Source of the DNA: Pseudomonadota bacterium | GTDB taxonomy: Bacteria; Pseudomonadota; Gammaproteobacteria; UBA9214 | DNA: 64,000 nucleotides | Assembly: GCA_039714975.1 (NCBI GenBank) | Contig: JBDLIH010000003.1 | Span: 10,197 to 74,196 of the forward strand | Direction of reading: 5' to 3' | In this document: positions 17,949-22,530 of the stretch, piece by piece | How positions within the stretch are numbered: the stretch's first letter is position 1 | Layout: each line of letters opens with the position of its first letter | Position numbers and translations under genes: made by a program | Notes under the pieces: model-generated | Told to the model about the DNA's origin: nothing | Seen by the model: only the letters and a program-made list of their open reading frames with translations | Databases searched by the model: none

Positions 17949-19955
17949 ATGCGGCCTGAGAGGTTGACGAGTCGGCTCCGTCTGGTGCTCAGGTGCGGTT
18001 CCCTTGCCTGCCTGATCAGTACCATGACATACCCTGTGGCTGCCGAAACAACTGATGCCCCCGGGTCTGAGGCTGATCCAGCCGCAGCCTATGTAGACCA
18101 GTTGATTGAACCGCAGGCAGCGGACGGCGAGTTGTTCCCGGAGTATGAAGAGGTACAGGAGCCGGAAGGTTATCGCAGCTTCAGCACCGAGTATCGCCAT
18201 TATCAGCAAGACCTGGACCGTGCCGGCAAGTCCTATGAGGATGGCCTGATCTTTCATGGTCGCCATGAAACGCGTGATTATGGTGAGTTCGAAATGCTGG
18301 CGACGGCACGCTATATGCGCCCGCCTGGCAGTCTGCAGGAGAGCGACAACAGCGGCGGTCGCCTGACTTTGCGGCAGTACGGCTTTGCGGTCAATGAAGA
18401 CTGGCTGCTCGATAACAGCCTCGGTATCCTGCGCAGTGATACAGACCCGCTATTGAGCAGCAGTTATCGTATTAATCTGCCCTCGACGCTTGTATCGGGC
18501 CTGAGAAACTGGTCGCGCAACGACCGTAGCAGTGTGCGATTCAGTGCCGGGAAGATCGGTATCCTGGGTGTCGGGCGTATCGAGGATTTTGAATTCACTT
18601 CCGGCACCATGGCGTCGATGGGCTTGAGCCACTCGCTGAATCCCCGCTGGCATGCGGCGGCACAACTGATTGCCGTTAATGATTCCGATACCGTTGCGGA
18701 TCATGAGAGTGGCGCCATGGTGCTGCAATACCAGAGTCAGGATAAACGTCACCGTTACACGGGTCATGCATTATTCGACAGCGAGGGCAGTAACGGCATC
18801 TGGCTGGATGGTGATGACCGGCTGGGTCGCTGGCGGCATCGCTACGGCATCTTCAGGCTGGACCCGGATCTGCTGTGGAGTGATGCCACCATTACCGATG
18901 ACCAGCAGGGTCTCTATACGCGTTCGGAATTACGTTCACCACGCTACAACCTGACGGTTGGCACCGACTTCAATGAGAACAATGTGGAGAATCGTGCAGA
19001 CCGGCCACTAAGCCGGACAAGCAACCTGTTTGTCACCGGCAACCGCCGCTTTCTGCGATCCACGAGCCTGGGCGGTACCGCGAGCGTTAACAGGGTGGAC
19101 CCGCGCAATACCCTTGCCGGCGAGGAAAAACGTGCGCTCAGGCTGTCGACTTATGTCCAGCAGCGATTCGGATTCGGCACCAGTCGACTCGAGGTCTTCA
19201 TCGCCGCTATCGAGGAGGGCAGTGACGAGGGTGATGTGCACGGCGTCATCTGGGACCAGAGCTGGAACCTGTCACGGCAGTTATCGCTATCGACGACACT
19301 GTCCCACGAAAAGAGTGACGGTCTGGTCAGTGATGAGCAACGTGACTCGGCCAGTATCCTTTTTTCTCACAGTATTACCCCTGATCTGGACTGGAATGGC
19401 AGCGCCAACTACACCCGTGTGAAAACAGCAGGCCGTGCCGATACGGACAATTACAATGCTACGCTCGGGGCGGGGTGGCAGTTCCTGCGCAACTGGGCTG
19501 CGCGTCTGGATTTAACCTGGACCCAGGCCGAGGAGTCCGTCGGTGTCCTGGCAGACGCCTTTAATGTTAACGAAAAAACGCTGCTGCTGAGTATCAGGCA
19601 CAGCGTGCGTGGTGGCCGGCCGTTTATGACTGCCGGAAACCGTACCGGCTCATCCGGCTACGGTGAGATCAGTGGCGAGGTGTTCTATGACGCCAACCGC
19701 GACGGTGAGCGCCAGGCTGGCGAGCGCCCTGCCAGCGGTGTGTTTGTCTATCTGGACGGGCGCTATGAGCGGGTCACGGACAAGCAGGGACGTTTTACCT
19801 TTAACACGGTCCCGGCCGGTGAGCATGCCGTCAGGCTTGCCATTGAAGACCTGCCATTGCCGTGGGGGCTGGAGGATGAATCACCGCTGCCAGTGGTGGT
19901 GTCCGTGCGTCAGGACAGCGTGGTCAATTTTGCACTGACACGTATTAACGAATAA
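17949..19955 (+). CDS. Secreted or outer-membrane hypothetical protein (668 aa) with a C-terminal Cna-B/SdrD-B/carboxypeptidase-regulatory-like beta-sandwich domain
   Basis: N-terminal signal peptide. The long central region is rich in amphipathic beta-strand-like segments, suggesting a barrel. The C-terminus GEISGEVFYDANRDGERQAGERPASGVFVYLDG...KQGRFTFNTVPAGEHAVRL matches the Cna-B/CarboxypepD_reg pattern. Confidence 0.55.
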   Translation: MRPERLTSRLRLVLRCGSLACLISTMTYPVAAETTDAPGSEADPAAAYVDQLIEPQAADGELFPEYEEVQEPEGYRSFSTEYRHYQQDLDRAGKSYEDGLIFHGRHETRDYGEFEMLATARYMRPPGSLQESDNSGGRLTLRQYGFAVNEDWLLDNSLGILRSDTDPLLSSSYRINLPSTLVSGLRNWSRNDRSSVRFSAGKIGILGVGRIEDFEFTSGTMASMGLSHSLNPRWHAAAQLIAVNDSDTVADHESGAMVLQYQSQDKRHRYTGHALFDSEGSNGIWLDGDDRLGRWRHRYGIFRLDPDLLWSDATITDDQQGLYTRSELRSPRYNLTVGTDFNENNVENRADRPLSRTSNLFVTGNRRFLRSTSLGGTASVNRVDPRNTLAGEEKRALRLSTYVQQRFGFGTSRLEVFIAAIEEGSDEGDVHGVIWDQSWNLSRQLSLSTTLSHEKSDGLVSDEQRDSASILFSHSITPDLDWNGSANYTRVKTAGRADTDNYNATLGAGWQFLRNWAARLDLTWTQAEESVGVLADAFNVNEKTLLLSIRHSVRGGRPFMTAGNRTGSSGYGEISGEVFYDANRDGERQAGERPASGVFVYLDGRYERVTDKQGRFTFNTVPAGEHAVRLAIEDLPLPWGLEDESPLPVVVSVRQDSVVNFALTRINE

Positions 19956-19969
19956 CGCCCGGTGAAGAC

Positions 19970-20773
19970 CTATTCCAGCGTGGTGTCCACCTTCTGCCGG
20001 CCGCCCTGCCATTCGATCAGCCCCTTGAGTTTAAGCGGGGGCGTCAGGGTGACGGCCTTTTCACCTTCCGCGGTTGCTTGCCAGAGGGTGACAGGGCGTG
20101 TTTGCCCGGGAAGAATCGGCGTCTGGGCCAGGATGAAATCAATCTTTTGACCACGGGCATCGCGGCCTTGCAGAAAGCCGTCAGGCCGGCCATGGGCGTT
20201 ACCGGTGTTTTCCAGCAAGGCCACCGGTGTCAGTTGTTCGTTAACGTTCCGCAGTTCCAGTGACTGCAGCGACAGCACCGGTGCGGCATCGCCTACTGTG
20301 ACGTAGATAATAATTGCGATGCGTCCTTCTACCGGAAAACGGATATTCCTGGCGCGTGCCATGACACCTTCATCATCACCGGGTTCAATGAGTATCGCCA
20401 GGCGACATTCACCGGCAGGGGCCTGCTCCGGAATATGCAATTCAAAACGGTAGCGTTTTCCCGACTGTGGTTGCAGGCGTATTGCGCGCCGTTCAATGCG
20501 TGCCCAGGGGCGACAACTGCCCGGTTGCAGTTCGGGTGGAAAGATGGTCAGTCCGCCGCCCTCCGACAGGTCCCAGTCGGCTGTGCGGATCGAGTATACA
20601 GCCGCAGTATCACCGGCATTTTCGATGTCGACGATTTCGCGAACCACTGAGCCGGCTTTACCGTGCAGTTCGAAACGCGGCGGGGACACCATGGCCGAAA
20701 AACCGGCCCCCCAGGCACTGTTTACAAGGCAGGCAAGGATGAAAACCAGCAGGCAGGAAGACTTTTTTGGCAT
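19970..20773 (-). CDS. Periplasmic pilus/fimbrial assembly chaperone-like protein (PapD-like N-domain)
   Basis: Signal peptide. AMVSPPRFELHGKAGSVVREIVDIENAGDTAAVYSIRTADW resembles the PapD_N pattern (V.P.R.x. ...V.N.G. ...W). 267 aa, similar to CsuC/PapD sizes. Confidence 0.55.
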   Translation of the reverse strand: MPKKSSCLLVFILACLVNSAWGAGFSAMVSPPRFELHGKAGSVVREIVDIENAGDTAAVYSIRTADWDLSEGGGLTIFPPELQPGSCRPWARIERRAIRLQPQSGKRYRFELHIPEQAPAGECRLAILIEPGDDEGVMARARNIRFPVEGRIAIIIYVTVGDAAPVLSLQSLELRNVNEQLTPVALLENTGNAHGRPDGFLQGRDARGQKIDFILAQTPILPGQTRPVTLWQATAEGEKAVTLTPPLKLKGLIEWQGGRQKVDTTLE

Positions 20774-20775
20774 GA

Positions 20776-21252
20776 TTAGAACGTTTCGATATCAAACAGG
20801 GGTTGAAAGCGCAGGTTGTTGTATACCTGCCGGGCATCGATGTCAAAGGTGATGTCAAAGACATCGCTCATGACGGGTTCGGTAATCTCGCCCTCAAACA
20901 ACTTGGCGCGGTTGCCGGCCGTTATGGCGCCATTCGAGAACAGGCCATTGGTTTGCCAGCTCATGCGCAAGGCGGATGAGTCGCCGGTGCCGCGGATATT
21001 GATGGGCAGGCGGATGAAGATCTTGCCGCGCTTGCCAACAAAACGCCTCGTGTTCAGGCGGATTTCAACACGACGTGCACGGGCCGTGAGGGCGTTCAGT
21101 TCCCGTTCGTCGAGGTTTTCAGTATTTCGTGTCTGTTTCCAGTCGAGATCAAGGTCAAACTGTTGTTGTGTAGAGAGGCTGTCATCGAGCCTTTCAGCGC
21201 AGGCCGGCAGGACATTGAATACGAGCAACAGAAGCAGCAGGCCGTTTTTCAT
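20776..21252 (-). CDS. Secreted hypothetical protein (158 aa), third gene of the chaperone operon
   Basis: Signal peptide MKNGLLLLLLVFNVLPACA. It overlaps the upstream gene by 4 nt and lies 2 nt from the chaperone start. Confidence 0.5.
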   Translation of the reverse strand: MKNGLLLLLLVFNVLPACAERLDDSLSTQQQFDLDLDWKQTRNTENLDERELNALTARARRVEIRLNTRRFVGKRGKIFIRLPINIRGTGDSSALRMSWQTNGLFSNGAITAGNRAKLFEGEITEPVMSDVFDITFDIDARQVYNNLRFQPLFDIETF

Positions 21253-21812
21253 GGCACGGCAAAGGTGTAGGTGGCACGCCCTTTGTAGGTGCCCGCTTCG
21301 AGCGCCAGCGTGTTGGCATAACGGAAGGTGAGAATGTCATCGAGGTTGTGCGGCGAACCGGGGAAGTCCACGATCGGCTGGTCGATGCTGCCGGTAAAGG
21401 TGCCTGACGGAATGTCACCGTCCCGTGCGGTCCAGCTGATCTGGGAAAACGGGATGGTACCGGTGCTGCCGGGATCATCGATCGCAAGCGGATTTGTGAA
21501 CGAATCGACCGTCAGAAAGGCCGTCAGCGGGTTGGCAGCGGATGCGCGTAATCGCGCGTGGATTCTGATGGTGGGTGTTCCGGTAATGGCACTGCCGTCA
21601 CCCACCCGTCCTGCCGGGACAGAGAAGGCAACCTCGCTGATGTTCCCGCCTCCGTCACCGACGCGGATATACAGCCGGGGAACGGCCCTGTTGTTCAGGT
21701 TAAAAATGATGGCATCGACAGTGGATGACCACAGTGCACAGCAGATCAGGGCACTTTTGCATAGCGATCGCAGACGACACCCGGACAAGATTGGCAACAA
21801 TGGCTGCATCAT
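21249..21812 (-). CDS. Secreted pilin-like subunit (187 aa), paralog of the 206-aa protein
   Basis: Signal peptide and an N-terminal alternating-hydrophobic segment IIFNLNN..PRLYIRV. Gly/Ser/Thr-rich core. C-terminal motif YKGRATYTFAVP is shared with the neighbour (QVTYTAAIP). Confidence 0.5.
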   Translation of the reverse strand: MMQPLLPILSGCRLRSLCKSALICCALWSSTVDAIIFNLNNRAVPRLYIRVGDGGGNISEVAFSVPAGRVGDGSAITGTPTIRIHARLRASAANPLTAFLTVDSFTNPLAIDDPGSTGTIPFSQISWTARDGDIPSGTFTGSIDQPIVDFPGSPHNLDDILTFRYANTLALEAGTYKGRATYTFAVP

Positions 21813-21909
21813 GTTTTCAATGCTACCTTTATGTGCCTGTAAACACCAAGGGCCGCGGCTGAAATCAGCGACGGCCCCGGGTTGCTACCGGTTGATATTC
21901 TGGGAGACG

Positions 21910-22530
21910 CTAGGGTATTGCTGCCGTGTAGGTAACTTGACCACCGGTTGCCACGGCACCGTCACCGTAGGTACCTGCCGGGTAATCAGCGGTGTGGTCG
22001 TAAACATAGGTCCAGACGGTATTGTAATTGGTTATTTTGGCATTTATGTTCGGCATCGGTGTTGAGGTGCCACCACCGGCATTCGAGAGTGTGGGGGGAC
22101 TAAAAGCGGGGATACCACTTGACGCAAGGATTTCGGAGTAGGGGATTTGGTCTCCGAAACCGTTGCCGAGCCCCGCACCACCACTGTTATTGGTTTCAGT
22201 GATGATGACATCTCCGGCATTGCTGAACAGGGCTGCGGTGACGGCACCACCACCCTGATCACCACCGCTACCCGTGATATCGGTGCTGCCAATGGCGCCA
22301 TTACCCACGTCGGTAGCTTGCAGGTTGAATTCAATAAGGTCTATGTTACCGGTACCTGCCTCACCGACCTGAAAGCGCAGTACACCGGGGATGGTAATAC
22401 GGAAATCCAGTTTTGCAGACGCAGAAGGATTTGCACCGTTGTCACTGTTTGATTCGGCCAGCAGCGTGCCAGGCAGGCCGCTGATCACCACAAAAAATGC
22501 CGTAAGACAATGTTTATAAAAGTTTTTCAT
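21910..22530 (-). CDS. Secreted pilin-like subunit (206 aa), first gene of the operon
   Basis: Signal peptide. AKLDFRITIPGVLRFQV is donor-strand-like. Gly-rich core. C-terminus TYGDGAVATGGQVTYTAAIP. Confidence 0.5.
   Translation of the reverse strand: MKNFYKHCLTAFFVVISGLPGTLLAESNSDNGANPSASAKLDFRITIPGVLRFQVGEAGTGNIDLIEFNLQATDVGNGAIGSTDITGSGGDQGGGAVTAALFSNAGDVIITETNNSGGAGLGNGFGDQIPYSEILASSGIPAFSPPTLSNAGGGTSTPMPNINAKITNYNTVWTYVYDHTADYPAGTYGDGAVATGGQVTYTAAIP

Follow-up and report, generated by a model that had tools for sequence, protein, structure and literature searches.

A conserved, unannotated five-gene module of Beta- and Gammaproteobacteria: a candidate chaperone-plus-pore pathway for donor-strand-complemented subunits

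What does a compact cluster of genes for secreted, pilin-like proteins assemble when it encodes a chaperone-like protein and no recognizable usher? The question is raised by a 64,000-nucleotide stretch of contig JBDLIH010000003.1 (positions 10,197 to 74,196, forward strand) from a Pseudomonadota bacterium of the gammaproteobacterial lineage UBA9214 (GenBank assembly GCA_039714975.1), hereafter the window, in which an initial annotation made from the sequence alone had proposed a divergent chaperone/usher (CU)-type fiber system of four genes, here named A to D. We find that A to D, together with a fifth gene, E, form a conserved, unannotated five-gene module, of which the window holds one copy:

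Gene A, 21910-22530, minus strand: secreted subunit of 206 aa, presumed to be the major one, with a signal peptide, an N-terminal LDFRITIP (residues 41-48), a Gly/Ser/Thr-rich core, and a C-terminal VTYTAAIP.
Gene B, 21249-21812, minus strand: secreted paralog of A of 187 aa, presumed to be a minor subunit.
Gene C, 20776-21252, minus strand: secreted protein of 158 aa, fold unassigned.
Gene D, 19970-20773, minus strand: periplasmic chaperone-like protein of 267 aa with two β-sandwiches, a relative of WxLIP/DUF916.
Gene E, 17949-19955, plus strand: predicted outer-membrane protein of 668 aa, a candidate usher equivalent.

With a probability of roughly one half, we read this module, [A/B]n-C-D-E, as a non-canonical pathway, chaperone plus pore, by which Beta- and Gammaproteobacteria assemble donor-strand-complemented subunits. 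A more specific form, in which the module is an unrecognized pilus or surface-fiber pathway whose WxLIP-type chaperone and non-usher outer-membrane pore polymerize a new family of donor-strand subunits, is more tentative and somewhat short of even odds. What speaks for such a pathway is the co-inheritance and order of the genes, the fold of D and its hairpin, the model of A, the conserved termini of the subunits, their two to five paralogs per locus, and the hints that E resides in the outer membrane.

The four-gene observation from which the analysis started is confirmed. Open reading frame (ORF) coordinates place the packed minus-strand genes exactly as had been claimed, with B and C overlapping by 4 nt (21249-21252) and C and D separated by 2 nt (20774-20775), while E, which is convergent to D, terminates 14 nt away from the D stop codon. 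Signal peptides, also claimed for all four products, are visible in the translations, where the cuts can be read between GLPGTLLA and ESNS in A, WSSTVDA and IIFN in B, VLPACA and ERLDD in C, and VNSAWG and AGFS in D; translations and family alignments together mark them as plausibly of the Sec type. None of A to D matched Pfam-A or NCBIfam, even at E ≤ 1.

To which genes these four belong was read from a scan of one genome per species (GTDB release 232), which yielded 162 stretches encoding relatives of D. Eighty were kept as loci and joined by 4 from metagenome contigs, making a set of 84 retrieved through D-family proteins. Iterated hidden Markov model (HMM) searches of all ORFs found A/B, C, D, and E co-occurring in at least 82 of the 84 loci, and all-versus-all clustering returned them as the only families common to at least 82; any other neighbor was present in at most 32, and the groups ranked after these five resemble spurious antisense ORFs. 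E adjoins D in 82 loci. In most of the distant lineages (Steroidobacteraceae, Nevskiaceae, Lysobacter, and many Burkholderiales), A-B-C-D-E lie on one strand. The carriers are Gamma- and Betaproteobacteria, nearly all of them metagenome-assembled genomes (MAGs), and the single isolate is Lysobacter sp. CA199 (WP_441337795-WP_441337799), in which RefSeq lists A to D as "hypothetical protein" and E as "carboxypeptidase-like regulatory domain-containing protein." More than 2000 metagenomic protein clusters hold relatives, mostly from soil, sediment, and water Proteobacteria. No gene examined had an annotation beyond "hypothetical" or a generic domain name, and in the literature we found no paper describing such a system or linking DUF916/WxLIP to Gram-negative CU-like systems.

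The initial annotation had assigned a PapD N-domain to D. This stands for the fold, which is PapD-like in the model, but not for the family: neither PapD_N nor PapD_C matched window D or any of 42 D-family members at E ≤ 1, and the PapD signature that had been quoted is a loose match only (V29.P31.R33, I50.N52.G54, W67). Homologs of D fall into 2074 clusters, very few of which have a Pfam domain; some homologs carry the label "fimbrial chaperone/PapD" from the Joint Genome Institute (JGI). Searched against PDB, the 42-member profile recovered a single relative of known structure, EfmWxLIP1 from Enterococcus faecium (9i1y/9i25; E = 5e-5), and no PDB chaperone was found for D by sequence or profile search. 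PF06030 (WxLIP_PGBD, formerly DUF916) was matched by 21 of the 42 members (best E = 1e-7), with window D alone falling below detection. Comparison by hhalign with six WxLIP proteins from Firmicutes plasmids gave a probability of 94.8% (E = 5e-8 over 178 columns), the match ending at the start of D domain 2; DUF3324 was matched by none of the 42 members. Judged by these profiles, the nearest sequence family of D is WxLIP, not PapD_N.

The AlphaFold2 (AF2) model of D is confident (predicted local distance difference test [pLDDT], 88; predicted template modeling score [pTM], 0.79) and comprises two β-sandwich domains, at residues ~26 to 160 and ~167 to 266, in a two-domain, boomerang-type PapD-like immunoglobulin (Ig) fold. 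Foldseek ranked WxLIP (4e-10), CfaA (1.6e-9), and CsuC (1.8e-9) highest, followed by YadV, CupB2, FimC, EcpB, Caf1M, and DraB, with E values of ~1e-6 for FimC, Caf1M, and DraB and with PapD also among the chaperone matches; the alignments to chaperones span both domains over 160 to 185 residues. As modeled, D resembles CU chaperones and WxLIP equally. The protein ends at residue 267 in a β-strand right after domain 2, with no hydrophobic tail, and since it has neither a C-terminal transmembrane helix nor a detectable DUF3324, it fits a soluble periplasmic protein.

The only internal segment of low confidence in the D model is at residues ~132 to 151 (pLDDT, 51 to 59), between strands 121 to 131 and 152 to 160, and it has alternating hydrophobic positions at 138, 144, 146, and 148. 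In the HMM alignment, these residues lie opposite the WxLIP segment that contains a hairpin, between the corresponding strands. In CU chaperones, a flexible F1-G1 loop precedes the G1 donor strand, and a hairpin that turns into a donated strand would formally be the same device. For WxLIP, Hassan et al. (2023, PMC10599100) predict that the disordered hairpin becomes such a strand, which is added in parallel to the WxL β-sandwich and completes it, and PDB entry 9i25 is described as WxLIP bound to a long WxL. Residues invariant in the D family are R33, S86-C87-R88, W90, R109, E122-C123-R124, P147, G150-R151, and Y157, of which we propose R33 and R124 as possible counterparts of Arg8 and Lys112, the residues that anchor the carboxylate in PapD.

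Are A and B the kind of subunit that such a chaperone would serve? That the two are paralogs, as had been proposed, was decided by comparison of their profiles: BLASTP of the pair gives a weak match (25% identity; E = 7e-5), and hhalign aligns the family profiles, of 68 and 116 relatives, with 100% probability (E = 8e-46 over 151 columns). Also sustained is the claim of an alternating hydrophobic stretch at the N terminus and a shared motif at the C terminus, both of which are kept family-wide. Among 60 homologs of A, L41, D42, F43, I47, and P48 are nearly invariant, and mature B begins directly at IIFNLNN...RLYIRVG and ends in ATYTFAVP. The 84 loci hold 179 ORFs of the A/B family, and 170 of these end in Pro, within a free C-terminal pattern h-T-h-T-h-T-h-P. 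A has 114 homologous clusters, none annotated; its copy in the window is MAG protein ABFS24_01770 (Pseudomonadota bacterium). The AF2 model of A is confident (pLDDT, 87.6), and A/B have a predicted pilin-like Ig fold, for which the best structural matches are subunits of donor-strand-exchange fibers.

Membership in the Csu/SCPU or DUF4402 pilins, to which the two had been likened, is unsupported. SCPU, DUF4402, Fimbrial, and WxL (PF13731) were matched by none of 60 A-family or 30 B-family members in Pfam at E ≤ 1, and searches of PDB sequences with single sequences of A and B and with profiles (30 members for B) returned nothing meaningful. The sole PDB match of the A-family profile, a borneol dehydrogenase, was judged spurious. 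The most fitting description of A/B is a new family of subunits, with a pilin-like Ig fold and outside any Pfam family. Other relationships were considered and set aside: the TLP-1 pond fibrils (PMC11494351), whose likeness to A is at the level of fold only and whose relatives are Flavobacteriales, and the cyanobacterial CT pilus, which is unrelated.

The initial annotation had noted that no canonical usher is encoded in the cluster, which is literally true but overlooks E, a conserved outer-membrane partner beside it. A region of ~480 residues in E has many amphipathic β-like segments, ~18 by a crude count that is not a strand number, and weak matches in Pfam and NCBIfam to OMP_b-brl, TIGR03016, EpsL, LptD, and DUF7840. 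All 31 E-family members carry a SdrD_B/CarboxypepD_reg-like Ig domain at the C terminus, the only part for which the E profile has PDB relatives, and Pfam Usher is matched by none of the 31 at E ≤ 1. E could have the architecture of an usher even with no similarity in sequence. Because of its co-inheritance and position, E is a natural candidate for the outer-membrane assembly or secretion pore of the module, the equivalent of an usher. Its GenBank annotation (ABFS24_01750, 639 aa) begins 29 codons inside the 668-aa ORF (window 17949-18036, plus strand) and so omits the signal peptide (MRPERLTSRLRLVLRCGSLACLISTMTYPVAA, cut before a residue E); the 668-aa start is more plausible for an outer-membrane protein. 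In one locus (L001, 8873-10945, minus strand, in a 5.7-Mb assembly), E is split into ORFs of 189 and 499 aa, either through a frameshift or pseudogene or through a sequencing error.

C, found in 83 of the 84 loci, always stands alone immediately upstream of D, and the median C-D gap of -4 nt across loci predicts that the two are translationally coupled; the gap lengths of the other gene pairs are distorted where ORFs in GC-rich loci were called too long. In the family alignment, the mature protein of ~135 residues has a conserved N-terminal RLDDSxS and C-terminal FxFEIDxx, with W38, R65, W99, T101, G103, G108, G113, and R115 invariant. It is not a lipoprotein, since homologs lack the Cys. Family members (26 examined) have no match in Pfam or PDB, and hhalign gave no similarity to the profiles of A, B, or D. 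A single-sequence phmmer search of 1.84 billion representatives found 184 clusters at E ≤ 0.001; among the 150 matches listed, the homologs are stand-alone proteins of ~160 aa, the longest reaching 255 aa, with no informative fusion.

How might these five proteins work together? The analysis establishes the co-inheritance of the five genes, the modeled folds of D and A, the homology of D to WxLIP, and the conserved ends of the subunits; we infer all of the protein-protein contacts, the polymerization, and the role of E in the following scheme. All five proteins would be exported by Sec, because they carry signal peptides. In the periplasm, soluble D may cap the incomplete fold of A/B, as suggested by its homology to WxLIP and its fold similarity to CU chaperones, donating a strand from the flexible F1-G1-like hairpin and the strand that follows it (residues ~132 to 160). 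The invariant R33 and R124 are candidates for holding the conserved C-terminal carboxylate of the subunits. Complexes of D and subunit would then dock on E, a putative outer-membrane β-barrel with a C-terminal Ig-like domain, where the N-terminal alternating hydrophobic stretch of the incoming subunit may replace the chaperone strand by donor-strand exchange, and the polymer would leave through E. As the product of the first gene, A is probably the major subunit; B is probably minor, and C may be an obligatory small component.

Among the known systems close to the module are CU pili, especially those of the alternative (CFA/I CfaA-CfaB; ECP EcpB) and archaic (Csu, CupE) classes. Both have small secreted subunit paralogs followed by a periplasmic chaperone and an outer-membrane protein; the predicted fold of D is that of a two-domain PapD-like chaperone, A/B are predicted to be Ig-like, with an N-terminal alternating hydrophobic extension and a C-terminal β-strand running to the free carboxylate, and the outer-membrane protein has a C-terminal Ig-like domain. 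Unlike CU pili, the module has no component in the PapD_N/C, Fimbrial, SCPU, or Usher families, its outer-membrane protein is ~670 aa in contrast to the ~800 to 900 aa of ushers and has no recognizable usher domains, it includes the additional, obligatory 158-aa C, and its D has an invariant pair of cysteines (Cys87-Cys123), with WxLIP as its closest relative by sequence. The proposal of a divergent CU-type fiber system is supported for fold and for gene architecture, with subunits, chaperone, and outer-membrane protein in this order in most loci, but is unsupported for family membership.

The second comparison is with the WxL/WxLIP (DUF916-DUF3324) clusters of Enterococcus, Lactobacillaceae, and Listeria (PMC10599100; PDB 9i1y, 9i25). 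D is homologous to the N-terminal PGBD/DUF916 domain of WxLIP and shares its two-sandwich architecture, including, within the aligned segment, a disordered first-domain hairpin of the kind predicted to complete the partner of WxLIP, and in both settings one such protein is encoded with two or more small secreted β-rich proteins. The module differs in its diderm host and conserved outer-membrane protein, in a D without C-terminal transmembrane helix or DUF3324 sequence signal, in subunits that are not detectably WxL domains and lack dual W-x-L motifs, and in having no LPXTG protein or large multi-domain adhesin. Chaperone-free donor-strand fibers (TasA, archaeal threads and cannulae, and the TLP-1 pond fibrils) lack both the two-domain chaperone and the outer-membrane pore, and A has no sequence similarity to their proteins. 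On the Firmicutes plasmids (L085-L090), a small WxL-domain or small hypothetical protein is encoded directly before WxLIP in five of six; in a Lactococcus plasmid (L086), both WxL genes follow it, and in some of the six a large WxL or leucine-rich repeat (LRR) protein does so. The common plasmid order echoes the subunit-then-D order of the module. A plasmid labeled Klebsiella pneumoniae (CP069367.1, 101986-102438) encodes an unannotated protein with 60.6% identity to E. faecium WxLIP1, an unexpected finding in a Gram-negative host that points to a mislabeled or contaminating Enterococcus plasmid.

Several points weigh against a chaperone-plus-pore pathway. All of the support is computational, from genes and monomer models; the barrel nature of E is read from weak HMM matches and a crude periodicity count, and its family appears to lie outside Pfam Usher (0 of 31). 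C remains unexplained. In the window's own lineage, E is convergent and hence outside the A-D operon. Finally, the closest sequence relatives of D, the WxLIP proteins, are scaffolds or anchors of non-polymeric surface complexes, not pilus chaperones. The main rival is that the module is a diderm counterpart of the Gram-positive WxL/WxLIP complex, in which D is a scaffold that binds A/B one-to-one through strand complementation, presenting or retaining them in the envelope, E serves only to export or anchor the complex, and no donor-strand-exchange polymer is formed. The homology of D to WxLIP, by PDB profile, PF06030, and hhalign alike, is what recommends it, together with a resemblance by eye, non-significant, of the last strand of A/B (..TYTAxxP) to the distal WxL motif (..TLTWxLxxTP). 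We nevertheless consider it rather unlikely: hhalign comparison of A/B with six small WxL proteins from Firmicutes plasmids gave a probability of 1 to 2%, PF13731 is not matched, D lacks both a C-terminal transmembrane helix and a detectable DUF3324, and a strictly conserved outer-membrane partner with two to five subunit paralogs fits an assembly line better.

A module that builds no fiber at all, for example, a periplasmic or outer-membrane complex for uptake, stress, or matrix binding in which the Ig-like A to D are binding or structural accessories of a channel E, would agree with the generic nature of Ig-like folds, with components annotated as hypothetical or by generic domain only, and with the weak similarity of E to outer-membrane proteins associated with PEP-CTERM/EpsL and linked to exopolysaccharide systems. 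It would leave the conserved N-terminal alternating strand, the invariant free C terminus, the expansion of subunit paralogs, and the two-domain chaperone-like partner with its flexible hairpin unaccounted for, and no enzymes, transporters, or polysaccharide genes are co-conserved across the loci; we hold it to be unlikely. Far less probable is a true member of the archaic (sigma, Csu/SCPU) or another established CU clade that has diverged past easy recognition. CsuC, CsuA/B, and CupE are indeed among the structural matches, and JGI applies fimbrial chaperone labels to some D homologs; yet PapD_N, PapD_C, SCPU, DUF4402, Fimbrial, and Usher all went unmatched at E ≤ 1 (42, 60, 30, and 31 members), the outer-membrane protein of ~670 aa has no usher signature, and the nearest sequence family of D is WxLIP. 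We rate this clade membership as very improbable because all of the sequence-family tests failed.

Because the classification of CU pili follows the phylogeny of their ushers, it would miss a pathway that uses another pore. If the module builds fibers, it would add a new assembly class, and WxLIP-type and PapD-type strand-donating chaperones would form one continuum across Gram-positive and Gram-negative envelopes, an evolutionary bridge between WxL/WxLIP complexes and CU pili. It could also be the source of some of the unidentified donor-strand fibrils in the environment. Lysobacter sp. CA199 offers a tractable cultured host.

Is the locus a stable part of its genome? The initial annotation had thought it looked accessory, in a stretch lacking Pseudomonas-type synteny, a view that the neighborhood does not bear out. 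Between 11 and 14 related gammaproteobacterial loci share the gene order ntrC-[E D C B A]-DHOD-SpoU-gpsA-secB, several betaproteobacterial loci share its SpoU-gpsA-secB side, and the GC content of the module (0.53 to 0.60) matches its flanks. The conserved neighbor order and the flank-like GC content indicate that the locus is stably inherited and not a recent island. Scans for sigma-70 promoters and terminators at the locus gave background levels, and inspection by eye of the region upstream of A revealed no sigma-54 -24/-12 element. One further feature lies between the subunit genes:

GC-rich RNA hairpin followed by UUGGUGUUU, 21836-21891, minus strand, in the 97-nt gap after A.

The hairpin has a U-rich tail, and its predicted fold, with a minimum free energy of -32.4 kcal/mol (z = -1.84), is marginally more stable than shuffled controls, 9 of 200 of which fold equally well; the terminator scan did not call it. 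On this weak evidence, the hairpin could act as an attenuator and so increase the proportion of the first subunit.

Two of the loci are unusual. One contig (L031, JANNRY010000206.1) carries two divergent copies of the module back to back, with E D C B B B on one side and B B B C D E on the other, so the module can duplicate as a unit. Another (L016, JABDRC010000035.1, 5056 bp), binned as "Halobacteria archaeon," encodes a complete A-B-C-D-E with a D that is 52% identical to that of the window, and is most likely a mis-binned bacterial contig.

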